A stretch of DNA of 32,000 bases from Arthrobacter hankyongi. GTDB lineage: Bacteria > Actinomycetota > Actinomycetes > Actinomycetales > Micrococcaceae. Below the pieces are notes generated by a model that was not told the DNA's origin, ran no database searches, and worked only from the letters and a program-made list of their open reading frames with translations. The stretch covers positions 66,323 through 98,322 of the forward strand of contig NZ_JAKLTQ010000009.1 of NCBI RefSeq assembly GCF_022012395.1, read 5' to 3'. The translations under genes and the position numbers were made by a program. Shown in pieces: positions 21,688-28,931 of this stretch (its first letter is position 1; every line of letters starts with the position of its first letter).

Positions 21688-22356
21688 TTACTGATGAGAC
21701 AACGCCTCCAGCAACTGGCGGAACGCGGCAAGGCGGCGTGGGGCCGTGGAAGGATCGCGGGAGGTATCGATTCCTGCCTCGCGGATTGCCCCGACGAGGA
21801 GTGCCGCGATCGCTTCGATGTCCAGCCGTGATGACACGTCGCCGGCCTCCTGGGCGTGGCGCAGTTCGGCGATGATGGCATCGAGCGTCTGTTGCGATCC
21901 GCTGCCACGGCGTTTGATTCCGACGAGCTGCGGGCCGGAAACGTTGTAGAAGAGGCCGAGTTCGTGCTTGGCGGCCAGTTCGAGCATCGCGCTCGGGTAG
22001 GCGCAGAGCCGGTCGATCCAGGTTCCCTGGCGGGCGGCGAGGATTGAGGCGGCGTCGACGAGGTCGCGGCCTAGGGTCTGGTACGCCTCGGCCAGGAGGT
22101 CTGCACGGCCGCCGGGGAAGTGGGCATACAGCGTTGCACGCGATGTGCCGGCGCGGCCCGTGATCCGATCAACCGTGGCGGCACCCAGTCCATTGGCGGC
22201 AATGACTTCGATCGCTGCCCGGATGAGGTCCTCGCGGGTGCGCAGCCGCTGGCGGACGCGGAGGGAGGCAGCAGGGGCGGACGGTTCGGTCACGGTGCCC
22301 GGCTCCTGGGCGGGCGGGCGGCGGATCTGGTCCGGGGATGCAGGAGTGACGGTCAT
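21688..22356 (-). CDS. TetR/AcrR-family transcriptional regulator
   Basis: 222 aa. The TetR HTH is REDLIRAAIEVIAANGLGAATVDRITGRAGTSRATLYAHFPGG. Its ATG overlaps the stop of the upstream fusion gene (ATGA at 22353..22356). Confidence 0.88.
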   Translation of the reverse strand: MTVTPASPDQIRRPPAQEPGTVTEPSAPAASLRVRQRLRTREDLIRAAIEVIAANGLGAATVDRITGRAGTSRATLYAHFPGGRADLLAEAYQTLGRDLVDAASILAARQGTWIDRLCAYPSAMLELAAKHELGLFYNVSGPQLVGIKRRGSGSQQTLDAIIAELRHAQEAGDVSSRLDIEAIAALLVGAIREAGIDTSRDPSTAPRRLAAFRQLLEALSHQ

Positions 22357-24671
22357 TGGTGTGTTCCCACGGTGCGGGTCTCGGCGGCGAGCGCCGAGTC
22401 GAGAGTGTCGATGACGTGATCGAGCTCGTCCCGCTCGATCACGAGGGGCGGGCGGATCTTCAGGACGTTGTCGTTGGGGCCGATGCGGCTGATGAGGATC
22501 CGTTCGCGCACGAGCGCTTCAACGAGCCGCTTGGCCAGCGGGCTGTCGGGGTTGCCGTCTTCGTCGACGAGGGCCAGCCCGAAGAACAGCCCGCGCCCCT
22601 TGGCCGCAGCCACGCGGGGCTGGCGGGCGGCGAGCTCCCGGAGGCGTCCGGCCACGTGGCGTCCGAGTCCGCCCGTGCGGGCGAGGAGGTCCCGGTCCTT
22701 GAGTTCGTCCAGCACGGCTTTGCCCGCCGCGGCGGCGGCGGGGGTGCCGGCGAACGTGTTGAAGTACATGTTCGCGCTGCTGAAGTCCTCGAGGACCGCC
22801 TGGGTCGTCACCACCCCGCCGAGCGGGTATCCGTTGCCCAGCGGTTTGCCGAGGGTGACCATGTCCGGGCTGATGCCGGTGGCCTGGTGGCCCCACCAGA
22901 CGTCGCCGAGGCGGCCGAGGCCGGCCTGCACCTCGTCGGCGATGACGAGGCCGCCGGCCGCGCGGATGCGTTCGACGAGTCCCGGCAGGTATCCCTCCGG
23001 CAGGCGCGGGAGGCCCTCGGTGGAGAAGGCCGGCTCGATGAGCAGCGCAGCGAGGCCGTGCCCGTCCTTCTCGAGCGAGGCGATGGCCTGGTCGATCTCG
23101 GCGAACGCGGCGGCGAGCTGTTCTCCGGGGTCGGCCCGTCGGGGATCGTCAAGGTCGGGGATGTTGATGGTGCGCACGTGCTGGCCGAAGGGTTCGGAGA
23201 CGGTTAGTCCGGTCGTCAGGGAGGCCAGGGCAATCGTGTTGCCGTGGTAGCTGTGGTCGGTCACGATCACGCCGCTGCGGCCGGTCCGGTGCCGGGCAAT
23301 GCGCAGCGCCAGTTCATTGGCCTCGGATCCGCTGTTGGTGAAGTAAACCCGGTCGAGGGGAGCGTCGAAGGTGGCCAGCAGTTGTTCGGCGTAGTCGACG
23401 ACAGGCTCGCTAAGGTAGCGCGTGTGGACGTTGTAGGTGTTCAGTTGGGCGCATACGGCATCCGCGACGCGGGGGTTGGCATGCCCGACATGCGGCACGT
23501 TGTTGTAGGCGTCGAGGTAGCGCTGGCCGTCCGCATCGGTGAGCCACACGCCGTCGCCCGATACGAAGTGCCGTGGGCGGTCGTAGAACAGCGGCGAGTA
23601 GGGGCCGATGGTCTTGGCCCGCCTCGCCAGCAGCTGTCGGTCGCGGTCGGGAAGGGGGGCTGGAGCCGCGCTGGGGGCCGGCCCAATGAATCCGCGGCAC
23701 AGGTCCAGGACGACCGGCAGGACCTCGGCGCGCAGGAAGGCGCTCGTCTCGTCCCCGGGCCGGTCGGCTGCCCATCCCAGGTAGGTAAGACCCCGGGCCA
23801 GTACCAATGCGTTCAGCGCTTCGGCGGCACCTTCCGGGATCTTGGCATGCCGCTCGTAGCCCTGCAGCAGCGCCTCGCGGTACTCGTTGGCGCGGGGATG
23901 GCGGTGGTACCAGAACAGGACGGTGGCCAGGTCGAAGAGCCACCAGCCTTCCCCGAAGTCGTCGAAGTCGATGAGCGTGAGGCGTCCTTGCGAGGTGAGG
24001 ACGTTCTCGGGGGTGAAGTCGGCGTGGATGACGCCGTAGACGTCCGGGCCGGTGCCGAGATCCTTGAGGGTCCGGCGGATGCCGGCGAGGGCTTCTGCGA
24101 TGGTCGCACGGTCCTTTTCCGTCTCGGCCAGCCGGCGCGGATCGCCCCATAGCGGATCCTGCCCTGCCAGGCCATCAGCGTCCCAGGCCTGCCGCGAGTA
24201 GCCCGGAATCCGGCCGAGGTCGCGGACGGTTGTGTGGAGCCGGCCGCAGAGTTCGCCGAGCTGCTCGAATGCCTCTGCGCTCAGGCCGTCCTTCCCCGCC
24301 CAGGCTTCTGCCGCGTCGCCGAGCGGAACCGAGTCCTCGACCCACCGCTGGACGTCCACGTGGTGCCCGCGGCCCTGCTCGTCGGGGACCACCGCGAAGA
24401 GCCTGCCATCAAGGGACGGCACAACTTCGGGGACCGGCAGGCCGGCTGTGCCCAAGGCGGCCATGTAGGCGTTCTCCGTATGCACCTCGGCATCGCTGCG
24501 GTGCCCAAGGCGGTGAATGCGCAGCGCGTAGGAGCCGCCGGCGTCCGAGACCCGGAAGACGACGTTCTCGCGGTGCTTGACGAACTCGATGTCCGCACTT
24601 GCGGAGATTCCGAACGAATCAAGGGCGCGCCGCGCAAGTGCGAGGGCATCCTCTCGGGAGAGGTTTGACAT
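22353..24671 (-). CDS. Bifunctional fusion of an N-terminal APH/choline-kinase-like phosphotransferase and a C-terminal class-III PLP aminotransferase-fold enzyme (candidate amino-alcohol kinase / O-phospho-amino-alcohol phospho-lyase)
   Basis: The preferred start is ATG 24671 (MSNLSREDALALARR...), with GGAAGGAA upstream. The track start at 24725 is possible. Kinase motifs are HADFTPENVL (HxDxxxxN) and IDFDDFG. PLP-fold motifs are FTNSGSEANELALRIAR, LIADEVQAGLGRLG and MVTLGKPLGNGYPLG (the Schiff-base Lys). Confidence 0.85.
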   Translation of the reverse strand: MSNLSREDALALARRALDSFGISASADIEFVKHRENVVFRVSDAGGSYALRIHRLGHRSDAEVHTENAYMAALGTAGLPVPEVVPSLDGRLFAVVPDEQGRGHHVDVQRWVEDSVPLGDAAEAWAGKDGLSAEAFEQLGELCGRLHTTVRDLGRIPGYSRQAWDADGLAGQDPLWGDPRRLAETEKDRATIAEALAGIRRTLKDLGTGPDVYGVIHADFTPENVLTSQGRLTLIDFDDFGEGWWLFDLATVLFWYHRHPRANEYREALLQGYERHAKIPEGAAEALNALVLARGLTYLGWAADRPGDETSAFLRAEVLPVVLDLCRGFIGPAPSAAPAPLPDRDRQLLARRAKTIGPYSPLFYDRPRHFVSGDGVWLTDADGQRYLDAYNNVPHVGHANPRVADAVCAQLNTYNVHTRYLSEPVVDYAEQLLATFDAPLDRVYFTNSGSEANELALRIARHRTGRSGVIVTDHSYHGNTIALASLTTGLTVSEPFGQHVRTINIPDLDDPRRADPGEQLAAAFAEIDQAIASLEKDGHGLAALLIEPAFSTEGLPRLPEGYLPGLVERIRAAGGLVIADEVQAGLGRLGDVWWGHQATGISPDMVTLGKPLGNGYPLGGVVTTQAVLEDFSSANMYFNTFAGTPAAAAAGKAVLDELKDRDLLARTGGLGRHVAGRLRELAARQPRVAAAKGRGLFFGLALVDEDGNPDSPLAKRLVEALVRERILISRIGPNDNVLKIRPPLVIERDELDHVIDTLDSALAAETRTVGTHQ

Positions 24672-24757
24672 CGTGCTGGTTCCTTCCATCCGGCCACGTT
24701 TATGGACTGCAGGTCTGGGAAACATCCTTACACTCCGATGCAGGCATCTGGAATACC

Positions 24758-24774
24758 AGTACGGTAACCATACT
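24758..24774. promoter_or_regulatory. Candidate TetR operator in the divergent intergenic region
   Basis: 17-bp imperfect palindrome AGTAcGGTaACCaTACT (7/8 pairs), flanked by the similar short palindromic units TCTGGAATACCAG and TCTGGAAATCAGA. This is the least GC-rich part of the 214-bp region between the fusion gene and the SDR gene. Confidence 0.3.
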
Positions 24775-24885
24775 CAGAGTCTGGAAATCAGACGGCTATT
24801 CCATGCGGCGCACCTGCGTGAGTACATTCGCTGCACCGGTCCGCGAAGGCCGGGGCCGAGCACTTTCAAGACCGGAGCAGATGTG

Positions 24886-25659
24886 ATGACGGAACACGAC
24901 AACGGGGGGCTCCCCAAGCGGGTAGTAGTAACCGGCGGGTCCTCCGGGATCGGCTTCGCCGTGGCGAAATACTTCCTGGAGTCCGGCACGAGCGTCGGCA
25001 TCATCGGCCGCGATCCGGCCAGACTCGAAGCCGCTGCCGAGGAGCTGGGCCGATCGGCCCACGGAAGGATCGAGGCCGCCTGCGCCGATGTCCGGGACGA
25101 GCAGCGGATTGGGATGGTCATCGACGAACTCGCCGGCAGCATGGGCGGCATCGACACCCTTGTGGCGGCCGCCGGCACGGAGGGCGAGATGGGGGCGGCC
25201 TGCGAGGACGTCACTGCAGCATCCTTCCGGGATGTCCTCGACATCAATGTCGTCGGCACCTTCCTGGCGGTGCGGCACGCACTGCCGCACCTGAAGCGGG
25301 CCGACGCCGGAAACGTCGTGATCGTGGGCTCGGACTCGGGCTTCGTCGCGGTACCGGGGATGTTGGCCTACAACGCGTCAAAGGGTGCGCTGGTCCAACT
25401 CACCCGTGCCCTGGCGGTCGAGCTCTTCGACGTCCACGGGATCCGGGTCAACAGCGTATGCCCGTCGATCGTGGACACGCCGATGGCCCGCCGCGGACTG
25501 GGTGTCGACTCCTTCACCGACGCGGCATACCCGGTCCAGGAAGCGGCAGACATCGCCTGGAGCGTGGGCTACCTGTCGTCCCACCGCTCACGTGCCATCA
25601 ACGGCGTGAACCTGCTGTCCGATTTCGGCTACACCGGCCGCTCCTCCTTCCCTGCATGA
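24886..25659 (+). CDS. Short-chain dehydrogenase/reductase (classical SDR)
   Basis: 257 aa from ATG 24886 (MTEHDNGGLPKRVVVTGGSSGIGFAV...). Cofactor motif TGxxxGIG and catalytic YNASK. The upstream part of the 360-aa track ORF is non-coding. Confidence 0.88.
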   Translation: MTEHDNGGLPKRVVVTGGSSGIGFAVAKYFLESGTSVGIIGRDPARLEAAAEELGRSAHGRIEAACADVRDEQRIGMVIDELAGSMGGIDTLVAAAGTEGEMGAACEDVTAASFRDVLDINVVGTFLAVRHALPHLKRADAGNVVIVGSDSGFVAVPGMLAYNASKGALVQLTRALAVELFDVHGIRVNSVCPSIVDTPMARRGLGVDSFTDAAYPVQEAADIAWSVGYLSSHRSRAINGVNLLSDFGYTGRSSFPA

Positions 25660-25684
25660 CCTCTCTTCTGCGAAAGGCAGACCG

Positions 25685-27148
25685 ATGACAGCCCCAGCCA
25701 CCACCAGCCAGCATGACGCCCTGTCGAGGAACTCCCTCGGGGTCTTCGGCGTGGCTTTCCTTGTCCTGGCCGCCGTCGCACCCCTGACCGGCATCGTCGT
25801 CATCACCGCCATCGGCATCGCCCTGGGCAACGGCGGCGGCATGGTCGCGTCGTTCATTGCCGTGACGGCGGTACTGTTGCTGTTCGGCACCGGCTACGCC
25901 CGTATGTCGAGTGAACTCGTCAACGCCGGCGGCTTCTACTCCTTTGTGCTCCGGGGCCTGGGCCGGCCCGCCGCACTCGTCACCGGGCTCGTGGCCATGA
26001 TCGGCTACAACTTTTTCGTTGCCGGCGCCGTAGGCACGATCGGCTTCTTCGCGCAGACCGTGATCGCGCAGCTGACCGGACTCGACCTGCACTGGTATAT
26101 CTGGGCGGTCATCTCTGTGGTCGCAGCCTTCGCGCTCAGCCGCCAAGGCATCGGCTTCAGCGCAAAGGTGCTCGGAGCCTCGCTGGTCTGCGAAGTGCTC
26201 ATCCTCCTGGTCTTCGACTTCGCGGTGCTCTTCACCCACGGGTTCGACCTTGACGTCTTCAAGCCCGACGTCGCGTTCTCCGGCGCGGTGGGCATCGCAT
26301 TCCTCTTCGCCTCCAACGCCTTCGTCGGCGTCGAGGCCACGGGCCTCTTCAGCGAAGAGGCCCGTGATGCCAAACGCACCATCCCGCGCGCCACGTTCGT
26401 GGCCATCGGCTTCATCGGCGTCTTCGCGGCCTTCACCACCTGGGCCATCGTCAGCGCCACCGGCGCCGCACAGGCCCAGGACGTTGCCTTGGGGCATCTG
26501 GAAGCGGGCGACCTCGTCTTCTCCCTCTCCAGCAGCTACCTTGGTGCCGCCCTCACTACCGTGATGATGGCGCTTCTCCTGGTCAGTCTCTTCGCCGCGC
26601 TCATGGCCCTGCACAACTCCGCAACCCGCTACATCTACTCCCTCAGCCGGGCACGCATTCTGCCGCAGAGCCTCAGCCGCACCCGCAACAACGGAGTCCC
26701 CGAGCGCGCCTCGATCGTGCAGTTCGTCTTCGCCACCGCCGTGGCCGGCCTTTTCGCCCTGGCCGGGCTCGACCCCATCACGTCCCTGGTGCCAAGCATG
26801 ACCGGTTTCGGCACCCTGGGCATCATCACCCTCCAGCTGCTCGCCGCCGTCGCCATTGTCGTGCACTTCCGCCGTACCCGGGATCGGCGGCTCTTCTCCA
26901 CCCTCATCGCGCCAGGCATCGGGCTGCTTGGGCTCCTGGTGATCGTCGTCCTGGCCATCATCAACTTTCCCGTCCTGGCCGGCTCCGACGCGCCGATCAT
27001 TGCCGGCCTGCCCCTGCTGCTGCTCGCCGCCCTCGCAGGGGGGCTCCTGTGGGCCGCGTATCTGCGCAGGAACCGGCCTGAGGTGTACGACGGGCTCAAC
27101 CACGACCTCGAGCGCTTCGAGGACAACGTCCCCGAGGCCCACCAGTAG
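25685..27148 (+). CDS. APC-superfamily amino acid/amine permease
   Basis: 487 aa, about 12 TM helices, with a typical APC N-terminus (LGVFGVAFLVLAAVAPLTG). The 526-aa ORF on the opposite strand is Gly/Asp/Glu/Arg junk. Confidence 0.85.
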   Translation: MTAPATTSQHDALSRNSLGVFGVAFLVLAAVAPLTGIVVITAIGIALGNGGGMVASFIAVTAVLLLFGTGYARMSSELVNAGGFYSFVLRGLGRPAALVTGLVAMIGYNFFVAGAVGTIGFFAQTVIAQLTGLDLHWYIWAVISVVAAFALSRQGIGFSAKVLGASLVCEVLILLVFDFAVLFTHGFDLDVFKPDVAFSGAVGIAFLFASNAFVGVEATGLFSEEARDAKRTIPRATFVAIGFIGVFAAFTTWAIVSATGAAQAQDVALGHLEAGDLVFSLSSSYLGAALTTVMMALLLVSLFAALMALHNSATRYIYSLSRARILPQSLSRTRNNGVPERASIVQFVFATAVAGLFALAGLDPITSLVPSMTGFGTLGIITLQLLAAVAIVVHFRRTRDRRLFSTLIAPGIGLLGLLVIVVLAIINFPVLAGSDAPIIAGLPLLLLAALAGGLLWAAYLRRNRPEVYDGLNHDLERFEDNVPEAHQ

Positions 27149-27224
27149 GACTCCCCGTGGCGGGCACCCTTTTCGCATCCATGCCGAGGTGCAGAAGTTC
27201 AGATTCGAAAATCAAGGAGTGAAC

Positions 27225-28931
27225 ATGGCAAAGGATTCCCCGATCGATTTCATCGTGACCGGTGGGCCGGTCTACACGAGCGACCCGGACCATGAGTGGG
27301 CAGAGGCCTTCGTCGTCTCCGGGGGCAAGATCAAGGCGGTCGGTACGGAGGCCGAGCTCCGGGCCCTGGCAGGCGGTTCCGTGCCGGTCCTGGACCTTGA
27401 GGGACGGCTGGCATTGCCCGGTCTCGTCGACGTGCACGCCCATCTGGGGCTCGGGGGCCGCCAGCTGGCCTTCGAGTTGCCGCTCCTGCCGACCGACTCG
27501 ACCGCTGAAATCTTTGCGAAAGTACGCGCCTGGGTGGAGCGGCTCGGCCCGGAAGAGTGGGTCGTCGGGGGCATTGTGGGGTCGACGGTCATGGACGACA
27601 TCACCGTCCAGGATCTTCAGCTGCTGGACGAGGCAGCCCAGGGCCACACCGTGATGCTGCGCGACGATTCCATGCACAATCGCTGGGTCAACTCCCGCGC
27701 TCTGGAGGTCATGGGCGTTACTCGGGATTCACCGAATCTCGAGGGCGGGACCTATGTCCGCGACGACGCAGGAAACCTCACCGGCGTCCTGCATGAGCTG
27801 GCCGGCGGCCTCGCCGAAGCCGCCGCGGCGGCCTCCATCAGGGACCTGGACCAGTACAACGCCGTGGCACTCAAGACGGCGATCCGTACGTTGAACTCCT
27901 TCGGCATCACCTCCGTCCAGGAGGCAGCGACCATGGACTACGCCCTCAAGACGCTCCACCACCTTGACGGACAGGGGGAACTGACCGCGCAGGTCGTCGC
28001 CTCCATGCCGTCGCGCACCTTCATCGAACCGGGCATCACCGGCCCGGACCTCTACGAGATCGGGTCGAAACACCGCAGCGAGCATGTGCGCCCGGACTTC
28101 TCCAAATACGTCCTCGACGGGGTCCCGATGACGCGGACCTCCGCCATGCTCCATCCCTATATCTGCAGCCACCCCACCCACGAGCCGGACTTTACCGGCG
28201 AGTCATTGTGGGAGCTTGCTGACCTGGTCAGGTCCTTAGAGGATCTGGTCGACCGCGGGCTGCACGCCAAGCTCCACGCCACCGGAGATGCCGCCGTCCG
28301 CCGGGTGCTCGACGCCGTCGAGGCGGTCCGCAAGAGCCGCGGCTATGGGGCCATCTTCCAGATTGCCCACGTCGAGTACATCGATGACGCAGACCTCCGC
28401 CGCTTCGCCGAGCTGCAGGTCGTGCCGGACGCCTCGCCATACCTGTGGTTCCCCTCCGTCATCCAGGAAAGCATCGCCAAGCAGATCCCTGCCGAAACCT
28501 TCGACAAGTCCTGGCCTCTGCGGGACCTGTTCGAGGACGGGGCCCTGGTTTCCGGCGGATCGGACTGGCCGTGCGCGGCGCCGACTCCGGACCCGTGGAC
28601 AGGCCTGGAAACCATGGTCACCCGGCGCAGTCCCGATCCCTCGGTCGCCGGCGAGCTCAACGCCGGCCAGGGTATCGACCTCCGGCAGGCTGTCGCCGCC
28701 TTCACCCGCAACCCTGCCGCCGCCATGGGGCTGGGCGAGGTTACCGGCATGCTCAGGCCGGGACTCGCTGCGGACTTTATCGTCCTTGACCAGGACATCT
28801 TCCGTGAAGATCCGTCCGCCATCCACAAGACCAAGGTCCTGCAGACGTACTTTGAAGGCCGCCTCGTGTACGACGCCGGCGATGCTGACGGCTCCGCCCA
28901 TACCTCGGACATGGTTCGCAGCAGCAGCTAG
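27225..28931 (+). CDS. Amidohydrolase-family metallo-hydrolase (YtcJ-like / amidohydrolase_3)
   Basis: 568 aa from ATG 27225, with AAGGAG 5 nt upstream. Contains MAKDSPIDFIVTGGPVYT, the metal motif LPGLVDVHAHLG, and a C-terminal GGSDWP...D loop. Confidence 0.82.
   Translation: MAKDSPIDFIVTGGPVYTSDPDHEWAEAFVVSGGKIKAVGTEAELRALAGGSVPVLDLEGRLALPGLVDVHAHLGLGGRQLAFELPLLPTDSTAEIFAKVRAWVERLGPEEWVVGGIVGSTVMDDITVQDLQLLDEAAQGHTVMLRDDSMHNRWVNSRALEVMGVTRDSPNLEGGTYVRDDAGNLTGVLHELAGGLAEAAAAASIRDLDQYNAVALKTAIRTLNSFGITSVQEAATMDYALKTLHHLDGQGELTAQVVASMPSRTFIEPGITGPDLYEIGSKHRSEHVRPDFSKYVLDGVPMTRTSAMLHPYICSHPTHEPDFTGESLWELADLVRSLEDLVDRGLHAKLHATGDAAVRRVLDAVEAVRKSRGYGAIFQIAHVEYIDDADLRRFAELQVVPDASPYLWFPSVIQESIAKQIPAETFDKSWPLRDLFEDGALVSGGSDWPCAAPTPDPWTGLETMVTRRSPDPSVAGELNAGQGIDLRQAVAAFTRNPAAAMGLGEVTGMLRPGLAADFIVLDQDIFREDPSAIHKTKVLQTYFEGRLVYDAGDADGSAHTSDMVRSSS

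Follow-up and report, generated by a model that had tools for sequence, protein, structure and literature searches.

What does a bacterial gene cluster do that joins a kinase to a pyridoxal 5'-phosphate (PLP) enzyme in a single polypeptide, and that has no microcompartment shell genes beside it? This question is raised by positions 21688-28931 of a 32,000-nucleotide stretch of the Arthrobacter hankyongi genome (contig NZ_JAKLTQ010000009.1, positions 66,323 to 98,322; this whole stretch is called the window below), where five genes in two divergent units are arranged around a 772-aa protein with an APH-fold kinase domain and a class-III PLP domain. A first-pass annotation, made from the letters alone, had read the locus as a shell-less catabolic cluster with a TetR-family regulator, in which an amino-alcohol kinase is fused to a phospho-lyase. 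Our sequence tests support this core reading, and we consider it likely that the cluster serves the catabolism of a vicinal (beta-hydroxy) primary amine through a kinase-then-phospho-lyase core.

The fusion itself is evident from the gene. Within the single open reading frame (ORF) 22353-24725 on the minus strand, Pfam detects both an APH domain (3e-26) and an Aminotran_3 domain (7e-72). The start that gives the 772-aa reading is the ATG at 24671, and it is supported by a ribosome-binding site (GGAAGGA) about 10 nt upstream, by the lengths of homologs (769-778 aa) and by an identical 772-aa protein in the database. The same observations bear out the architecture proposed at first pass, and the three motifs named there (HADFTPEN, IDFDD and TLGKPLG) are all present in the protein. 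The gene and its parts are as follows.

22353-24671, minus strand: 772-aa kinase/phospho-lyase fusion gene (APH and Aminotran_3 in one ORF)
23682..24671, minus strand: APH-fold kinase domain, residues 1-330 (Pfam APH, PF01636; HxDxxxxN at 216-223, DFD at 235-237)
23616..23681, minus strand: Pro/Ala-rich interdomain linker, residues about 331-352 (AlphaFold2)
22356..23615, minus strand: PLP domain, residues about 353-772 (Aminotran_3, PF00202; phospho-lyase clade)

Class-III PLP enzymes include lyases that catalyse 1,2-eliminations (PMC8154272), and several results place the PLP domain among them. In a search of all PDB sequences its best match was 5g4i (521 bits), followed by human ETNPPL (6tor, 281 bits), whereas the best transaminase scored 163 bits or less. 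The entry 5g4i, named 'phospholyase' by its depositors, is A1RDF1 of Paenarthrobacter aurescens TC1, a characterised phosphoethanolamine phospho-lyase to which the PLP domain is about 55-60% identical. We also built quick maximum-likelihood trees (LG+G4, with SH-aLRT support) from the PLP domains of related loci, the two solved lyases, the 10 class-III paralogs of the genome and two enzymes from microcompartment loci that are introduced below. The PLP domain fell into one clade with 5g4i and 6tor (SH-aLRT 100; 33 sequences, then 47), apart from all 10 transaminase paralogs and both microcompartment enzymes. The motif TLGKPLG carries the Schiff-base Lys609, and Asp579 is the PLP-N1 aspartate; these two match the Lys and Asp that every class-III sequence compared has at the aligned positions. 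Beyond them, all 13 residues that never vary within the clade but are seldom or never found in the paralogs are present (Y389, N390, N391, P393, R418, Y427, W593, P610, N613, F637, N638, K738 and R740), and the clade signature stretch YNNVPHVGH makes up residues 389-397 of the fusion. Position 738 is Lys in the phospho-lyase clade, as opposed to Arg, His or Gln in the transaminase paralogs of the genome. Match scores, clade membership and signature residues thus uphold the phospho-lyase reading, and indicate that the PLP domain is a phospho-lyase-type enzyme and not a generic transaminase.

In the kinase domain, HADFTPEN occupies residues 216-223 and IDFDD residues 234-238. Both motifs are invariant in 30 fused homologs, including H216, D218, N223, D235 and D237. 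The best solved relative of this domain is 6ef6 (131 bits, about 29-35% identity), which we take to be the (S)-1-amino-2-propanol kinase of Mycobacterium smegmatis, and which the kinase of a true microcompartment locus visibly resembles in its N-terminal stretch. This match points to the family of the kinase domain, but not to its substrate.

The availability of many related genomes allowed us to follow the kinase-lyase association beyond this locus. We compared 80 related loci (labelled L001 and so on), with separate counts for 28 actinobacterial ones. Most of the 80 have kinase and lyase either fused or as neighbouring genes, which in some of the loci are adjacent yet separate, and throughout Actinomycetota and Pseudomonadota the two are pervasively linked in one of these ways. 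Among database matches, the top 28 and about 37 of the best 120 are kinase-lyase proteins of 760-807 aa encoded by one ORF. A class-level sample of 401 genomes, 19 of them with the phospho-lyase, had too few positives for co-occurrence statistics, and we therefore used a family-level sample of 201 genomes, 27 of which have the lyase. Within the host genus it is present in 8 of 9 sampled genomes, and in seven of these eight it lies in an ORF of about 790-820 aa and is therefore a fused kinase-lyase. The lyase tree distributes the fused proteins over at least four separate clades of actinobacteria, and a fusion in the reverse order, lyase-kinase, is found in Pseudomonadota. The fusion is real, nearly all sampled members of the genus have it, and it constitutes a Rosetta-stone link between kinase and lyase.

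The fused kinase/lyase architecture is in itself already known, and a review that treats gene fusion as a clue to function cites the discovery of the hydroxylysine kinase and the phospho-lyases (PMC12138971, citing Veiga-da-Cunha 2012). The NCBIfam models NF004799 and NF004800 (PRK06148/PRK06149) describe proteins of about 1000 aa with kinase, M23-like and lyase parts; they match the PLP part of the window fusion with 469 and 381 bits, far below their cut-offs of 1128 and 973 bits. Unlike these proteins, the window fusion has 772 aa and no M23-like middle domain, and runs from the kinase through a short flexible linker to the lyase. A further type of fusion, of about 933-963 aa with a C-terminal aldehyde dehydrogenase (ALDH) following the lyase, occurs in Streptomyces, Geodermatophilaceae and metagenomes (L009:7872-10760, L083:3412-6213; P0072, P0085), and is a second Rosetta-stone case, joining the lyase to the following pathway step. 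The NCBIfam proteins and the lyase-ALDH fusions (~933 aa) share with the window protein the principle that successive pathway steps are joined in one polypeptide. Two other proteins of unusual build were seen. In Rhodococcus opacus DSM 44188 the kinase-lyase frame L043:8486-10303 has 606 aa with a partial kinase, while the near-identical P0025 has 772 aa, so that a frameshift or an assembly error may account for the short frame. Outside the window, a protein of about 786 aa in the A. hankyongi genome (G000:C4:81607-83967, plus strand) has a C-terminal class-III aminotransferase half that is sister to a GabT-like paralog, and an N-terminal half of about 350 aa without an APH-type match.

An AlphaFold2 model of the fusion as a monomer (mean pLDDT 86.4) has both domains confident and residues 331-337 below a pLDDT of 50. 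Given a pTM of 0.58 and the disordered linker, we do not claim a fixed orientation of the two domains, a channel or an interface between them; the model suggests domains that are tethered by a flexible linker, without a defined channel. Class-III PLP enzymes are obligate dimers, and the fusion therefore probably works as a dimer of PLP domains with two kinase domains attached.

Which known system does this locus represent? A1RDF1 (AAur_pTC20101; PDB 5g4i/5g4j) is encoded on plasmid pTC2 of P. aurescens TC1, in a divergent cluster with a short-chain dehydrogenase/reductase (SDR), an amino-acid permease and an APH-type kinase (annotated 'homoserine kinase') on one strand and a TetR regulator, A1RDF1 and an ALDH on the other. 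For five of these proteins the best match in the A. hankyongi genome is encoded in the window, and the matches are best in both directions: the SDR is 55% identical (to AAur_pTC20097), the permease 63% (to AAur_pTC20098), the kinase 47%, the TetR 35% and the lyase 55%. The window locus is therefore a fused-gene version of the cluster around A1RDF1, the one bacterial lyase studied biochemically. Like it, the pTC2 cluster is shell-less and divergent and has the same gene set, with lyases of one clade. The two differ in that kinase and lyase are separate genes on pTC2 but one polypeptide in the window, that the ALDH directly downstream of the pTC2 lyase has no counterpart in the window, and that the window locus lacks the plasmid and aromatic-catabolic surroundings of the pTC2 cluster. 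In addition, pTC2 holds an ortholog of the window amidohydrolase (62%), which lies 18 kb away beside a copper amine oxidase, whereas in the window this gene is inside the cluster.

The first-pass annotation had drawn its comparison with mycobacteria, where analogous genes accompany a bacterial microcompartment. The proposed pathway logic of this RMM/AAUM microcompartment (Mycobacterium, Rhodococcus; with the aminopropanol dehydrogenase APDH, 6ci8/6ci9, and the kinase APK, 6ef6) does match that of the window: both have an SDR, a kinase of shared fold, a class-III PLP enzyme, an APC-family permease and a proposed aldehyde product. We compared the window with two true RMM loci of Mycolicibacterium, both with shell genes, whose SDR matches the solved 6ci8/6ci9 enzyme at 487 bits and is its ortholog. 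The RMM proteins are only 33% (SDR), 28-29% (kinase) and 28% (PLP enzyme) identical to their window counterparts, and their PLP enzymes (L089:10154-11491, L091:9933-11210) lie outside the phospho-lyase clade and lack its signature residues. The presumed RMM phospho-lyase thus belongs to a different lineage from the proven phospho-lyases. The RMM loci also contain shell genes and an ALDH, of which the window cluster has neither, and the gene after the RMM SDR is a regulator of the GntR family (PMC4207490), as compared with TetR in the window. As judged from these comparisons, the RMM is an analogue and not an ortholog set, and the orthologous system is the A1RDF1 cluster of pTC2; the pathway analogy drawn at first pass holds, while the closest homologue lies elsewhere. 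The same applies to the SDR, which had been taken as an amino-ketone reductase analogue: it is indeed an SDR (adh_short, 2e-49), but its candidacy as an ortholog of the RMM APDH was rejected at 33% identity to the 6ci8-type enzyme. At the edge of one RMM locus we observed a gene, L091:18846-20000 on the minus strand, whose product starts with PGLHDHHLH, a motif of the kind typical for metal-dependent amidohydrolases. A tblastn search with the window amidohydrolase did not detect this gene, which is possibly among the 'hydrolases' that PMC4207490 reports for RMM1 loci.

The absence of a shell, proposed from the window, extends to the whole genome. In this 99.96%-complete assembly no BMC shell domain (PF00936) was found by a search that detected its positive controls and the true RMM loci, and EutB was not found in the genome either. 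Mycolicibacterium genomes that have an RMM also carry shell-less loci of the window type (L006, L026, L029), and since the two coexist there, the absence of a shell is the rule for the pathway lineage of the window.

A route from an amino-alcohol kinase to an O-phosphate phospho-lyase (EC 4.2.3.2) is known in Erwinia and Pseudomonas for ethanolamine and 1-aminopropan-2-ol, and has animal counterparts in ETNPPL and in hydroxylysine kinase with PHYKPL. To our knowledge, the bacterial genes for the classical EC 4.2.3.2 activities were not assigned in the original work. The window shares with this route the two-step logic and the same two folds, ETNPPL being in the same clade; it differs in having the steps fused, and set among an SDR, a permease, a TetR regulator and an amidohydrolase.

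The other genes of the cluster, and the sequence between its two arms, are as follows.

21688..22356, minus strand: TetR-family regulator, 222 aa (Pfam TetR_N, PF00440, 9.8e-11)
24745..24805, no strand assigned: operator-like nested palindromes, inside the 214-bp divergent intergenic region 24672-24885
24886..25659, plus strand: classical SDR, 257 aa (Pfam adh_short, 2e-49)
25685..27148, plus strand: APC-family permease, 487 aa (Pfam AA_permease_2, 2e-29)
27225..28931, plus strand: YtcJ-like amidohydrolase, 568 aa, cytoplasmic (Amidohydro_3, PF07969, 9e-88)

The divergent layout with its TetR gene is as first described, the fusion and TetR being on the minus strand and the SDR, permease and amidohydrolase on the plus strand, with all five families confirmed by Pfam. 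To the left the cluster is flanked by a group-1h-type NiFe-hydrogenase/HypA/HypB/NicO block, and to the right by a GGDEF gene. The TGA of the fusion overlaps the ATG of TetR (ATGA), as in translational coupling, and the two genes therefore form one operon. Every actinobacterial cluster inspected in detail has a TetR gene together with the lyase: regulators 61-67% identical to that of the window follow the fusion in L001, L002, L004 and L005, and a TetR gene adjoins the lyase in pTC2, L019, L083, L085 and L093. The intergenic region contains the palindromes GTCTGGAAATCAGAC and GTACGGTAACCATAC as well as an outer TGGAATA...TATTCCA pair, and the core GTCTGnnnnnCAGAC pair is kept in the intergenic regions of five related loci (L001-L005). 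A promoter scan of the divergent region found nothing, and is uninformative at the high GC of this region (the genome has 68% GC). It is possible that TetR represses both operons at these palindromes and is relieved by a pathway metabolite.

The SDR is 70-73% identical to its counterparts in L001-L005 and 54-61% in L006, L011, L013, L019, L020, L029 and L043; its orthogroup accompanies the kinase/lyase genes in 13 of the 28 actinobacterial loci. The permease is 57-71% identical to those of L010, L011, L019 and L043, and is presumed to import the amine substrate. We rejected its identification as an ethanolamine permease, the TIGR00908 score being 55 bits against a cut-off of 382.

From these domain identities, clade memberships, conserved catalytic residues and conserved gene linkages we infer the following catabolic route, with its steps, its substrate and its regulatory ligand all given conditionally. 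The APC permease would bring in the amine, and the N-terminal APH-fold domain would phosphorylate its hydroxyl group with ATP. The C-terminal PLP domain would then form an external aldimine, abstract a proton at the amine-bearing carbon and eliminate phosphate, releasing an enamine that would hydrolyse to an aldehyde (or ketone) and ammonium, with no need for an amino acceptor. The aldehyde would be oxidised by one of the unlinked ALDHs of the genome. The co-transcribed TetR would keep both divergent operons repressed at the intergenic palindromes until a pathway metabolite binds. Two steps are less certain: the SDR may interconvert an amino ketone and an amino alcohol, either as an entry point for amino ketones or for stereo-inversion, and the YtcJ-like amidohydrolase may free the amine from an N-acyl precursor.

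Several observations weigh against this reading. The substrate of 6ef6 cannot be transferred to the kinase domain because their identity is only about 29-35%, and the SDR is not orthologous to the characterised aminopropanol dehydrogenase. The amidohydrolase has no characterised close relative among solved structures, and its ortholog lies on another contig than the fusion both in the closest genus members that carry the gene (G502, G522, G562) and in Arthrobacter sp. CAU 1506. A dedicated ALDH is not part of the window cluster. Finally, A1RDF1 is reported (Cuetos et al. 2016) to be active in vitro on phosphoethanolamine, which need not be its physiological substrate.

The fate of the aldehyde had been called an open question at first pass. 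It is true that no ALDH lies in the window, but the matter is less open than it was made to appear: the genome has at least 30 ALDH paralogs, two of which (G000:C8:5177-6598 and C7:73167-74603) share 75-80% identity with the ALDH encoded after A1RDF1. Among the 80 related loci, about 27 have an ALDH within 8 kb. All lyase-linked ALDHs score below every curated NCBIfam cut-off (aminobutyraldehyde dehydrogenase about 400 against 615 bits; StyD about 380 against 850 bits); they thus give no means of telling the substrates apart, and the 'feaB' labels on pTC2 are therefore annotation only. One of the two close ALDH orthologs, 80% identical to that of pTC2, stands outside the window in a row of amidase (PF01425), MFS gene, ALDH and APC permease (G000:C8:1531-8148), which constitutes a further unit of an amide hydrolase with amine/aldehyde genes.

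There is also an alternative view of the substrate, which we consider unlikely on balance. Aryl-ethanolamines (octopamine, phenylethanolamine and noradrenaline-type amines) would yield arylacetaldehydes by the same chemistry, in parallel to a copper amine oxidase route for tyramine and phenylethylamine, and the amidohydrolase would first free the amine from N-acyl conjugates such as N-acetyl or hydroxycinnamoyl amides. The gene neighbourhoods offer much in its favour. The pTC2 block holds, besides the copper amine oxidase and the amidohydrolase ortholog, a PheA/TfdB-type monooxygenase, the 'feaB'-annotated ALDH and genes annotated as 4-hydroxyphenylacetate meta-cleavage enzymes, and the pTC2 amine oxidase, monooxygenase and hpaE all have counterparts of 77-91% identity, taken as orthologs, in the A. 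hankyongi genome. Copper amine oxidases are found near kinase/lyase genes in 8 of the 28 actinobacterial loci: in the Arthrobacter relatives L002 and L004 an AGAO-like enzyme, 75-77% identical to that of pTC2, lies 2 kb from the fusion-TetR operon, and six other loci have one of 46-55% identity. Amidohydrolase orthologs adjoin copper amine oxidases in L081, L084 and L088, and a phenol-hydroxylase-type monooxygenase adjoins the kinase in Klenkia. A precedent also exists in fungi, where an amidohydrolase, a copper amine oxidase and an ALDH act in succession on hydroxycinnamic acid amides (PMC13490858). Against all this, the window has no aromatic-catabolic gene, the linked ALDHs are below all curated cut-offs, StyD/phenylacetaldehyde included, copper amine oxidases also take small aliphatic amines, and none of the papers available to the literature search links octopamine catabolism with a phospho-lyase; moreover, the substrate that A1RDF1 reportedly accepts is the small phosphoethanolamine. 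A separate cluster near the end of a contig of the genome (G000:C11:84433-89805) contains an AGAO-like copper amine oxidase (77% identical to that of pTC2), a TetR-like regulator, an AraC gene and an APC permease.

Because the linked ALDHs are below the thresholds, no aromatic genes are present, and A1RDF1 reportedly acts on phosphoethanolamine, we rank small aliphatic amino alcohols first. The leading candidates are thus 1-amino-2-propanol/aminoacetone and ethanolamine, ahead of aryl-ethanolamines, with hydroxylysine-type amino acids last.

What, then, is the amidohydrolase doing in such a cluster? Its binuclear-metal motif set is complete (H71, H73, K294, H351, H382 and D447, the ligands being assigned by motif position), and these residues are invariant in 32 orthologs. 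With the AlphaFold2 model (pLDDT 87.9) as query, the only close PDB structures returned by Foldseek were two uncharacterised archaeal YtcJ-like hydrolases, followed by generic superfamily members of 12-17% identity, and in a sequence search of the PDB the same two archaeal hydrolases were the only close ones; neither search points to a substrate. The protein shares the fold and the complete metal-ligand set of the YtcJ-like family (PF07969). NfdA of Arthrobacter pascens releases benzylamine from N-benzylformamide. The name 'N-substituted formamide deformylase' (NfdA) on homologs of the window protein is automatic annotation only, but amine-releasing chemistry of this kind would fit the link of the gene with amine catabolism.

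The first-pass annotation had called the amidohydrolase an extra component. It is not confined to this locus, as the gene recurs facultatively in both kinase/lyase and amine oxidase clusters. Orthologs lie inside kinase/lyase clusters in six places, with differing gene orders.

Paeniglutamicibacter: SDR-amidohydrolase-MFS within the kinase/lyase cluster
Kineococcus: kinase-permease-amidohydrolase-SDR
Glutamicibacter: amidohydrolase ortholog within the kinase/lyase cluster
Paenarthrobacter: SDR-amidohydrolase-permease facing TetR-DAO-kinase-HbpS-lyase-ALDH
Streptomyces: lyase-TetR-kinase-amidohydrolase
Metagenomic contig: amidohydrolase in a cluster whose lyase is fused to ALDH

Seven other orthologs were inspected for their context, and all seven are near an enzyme that converts an amine to an aldehyde or imine. 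The three beside AGAO-like copper amine oxidases (L081, L084, L088) are directly adjacent to them, together with TetR, AraC, permease and ALDH genes, and one ortholog is near an FAD amine oxidase; in several relatives the gene sits in a copper amine oxidase cluster like that of G000:C11, and here it is found with the kinase/lyase fusion. In the family-level sample an ortholog is present in 15 of the 201 genomes, 10 of which also have the lyase, and five of these ten, which belong to four genera, have lyase and amidohydrolase no more than 4 kb apart. We read the amidohydrolase as a facultative partner of amine-to-aldehyde modules, be they kinase/lyase or copper amine oxidase, and the most economical chemistry would be the release of the amine from an N-acyl (amide) precursor.

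It is conceivable, if doubtful, that the amidohydrolase (and possibly the SDR too) is a mere neighbour, the functional unit being the permease, the fusion and TetR. The separate contigs noted above agree with this, as do the unrelated-looking context of the ortholog in Arthrobacter sp. CAU 1506, the presence of nine Amidohydro_3 paralogs in the genome, and the fact that lyase and amidohydrolase are within 4 kb in only 5 of the 27 lyase-bearing family genomes. This view is opposed by the half of the genomes with both genes that keep them within 4 kb, by the six kinase/SDR/permease operons of varied order that contain the gene, by the amine-converting neighbours of all seven other orthologs inspected, and by the SDR orthogroup, a companion of the kinase/lyase genes in 13 of 28 actinobacterial loci.

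That the substrate is 5-hydroxylysine or another hydroxylated amino acid, imported by an amino-acid-type APC permease, is improbable. The permease does belong to the amino-acid/polyamine/organocation family, the animal kinase and lyase are homologous in kind to the two enzymes found here, and gene fusion is cited as the route by which that pair was discovered (PMC12138971 citing Veiga-da-Cunha 2012). However, no aminoadipate-semialdehyde or lysine-catabolic gene was seen in the window or in the related loci inspected, what is conserved beside kinase and lyase is an SDR, amine oxidases and generic ALDHs, and the closest lyase that has been characterised takes the phosphate of a simple amino alcohol.

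That the PLP domain is an ordinary omega-transaminase, with an unrelated kinase target (an antibiotic or a sugar) and with steps of the fusion that are not consecutive, is hardly credible: Pfam and NCBI annotation do name the domain an aminotransferase, and the APH fold includes antibiotic kinases, an amicoumacin kinase being the second-best solved match of the kinase domain, but the 360-bit gap between the phospho-lyase and the best transaminase match, the clade placement and signature residues (K738 among them), and the pervasive adjacency or fusion of kinase and lyase in Actinomycetota and Pseudomonadota all point to lyases.

A broader proposal, which we offer as a speculation with the odds clearly against it, is that the amidohydrolase and the kinase/lyase fusion belong, as interchangeable modules, to a so far undescribed actinobacterial system that scavenges amide-conjugated biogenic amines, for example the N-acyl or hydroxycinnamoyl tyramine and octopamine of plants and insects. 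The amidohydrolase would set the amine free; amines without a beta-hydroxyl would then go to a copper amine oxidase and beta-hydroxylated ones, such as octopamine, to the kinase/phospho-lyase, each path leading to the same arylacetaldehyde and feeding 4-hydroxyphenylacetate catabolism. Were this so, octopamine-type amines would have their first bacterial route described at gene level, and the YtcJ-like orthogroup a function. Whether or not the proposal holds, the movement of this orthogroup between amine-oxidase and kinase/lyase modules is a lead to its substrate.

Returning to the reading that we prefer, a shell-less kinase/phospho-lyase cluster for a vicinal amino alcohol, its outline will not surprise specialists, and its value lies in the accuracy of annotation and in well-posed experiments. 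The different lineage of the RMM PLP enzyme bears on how the chemistry of the RMM organelle is read. The known two-step breakdown of amino alcohols would be extended to a well-defined fused enzyme that occurs genus-wide, and A1RDF1, hitherto studied in isolation, gains a genomic context in which the kinase, SDR, permease, TetR and ALDH are its testable partners.

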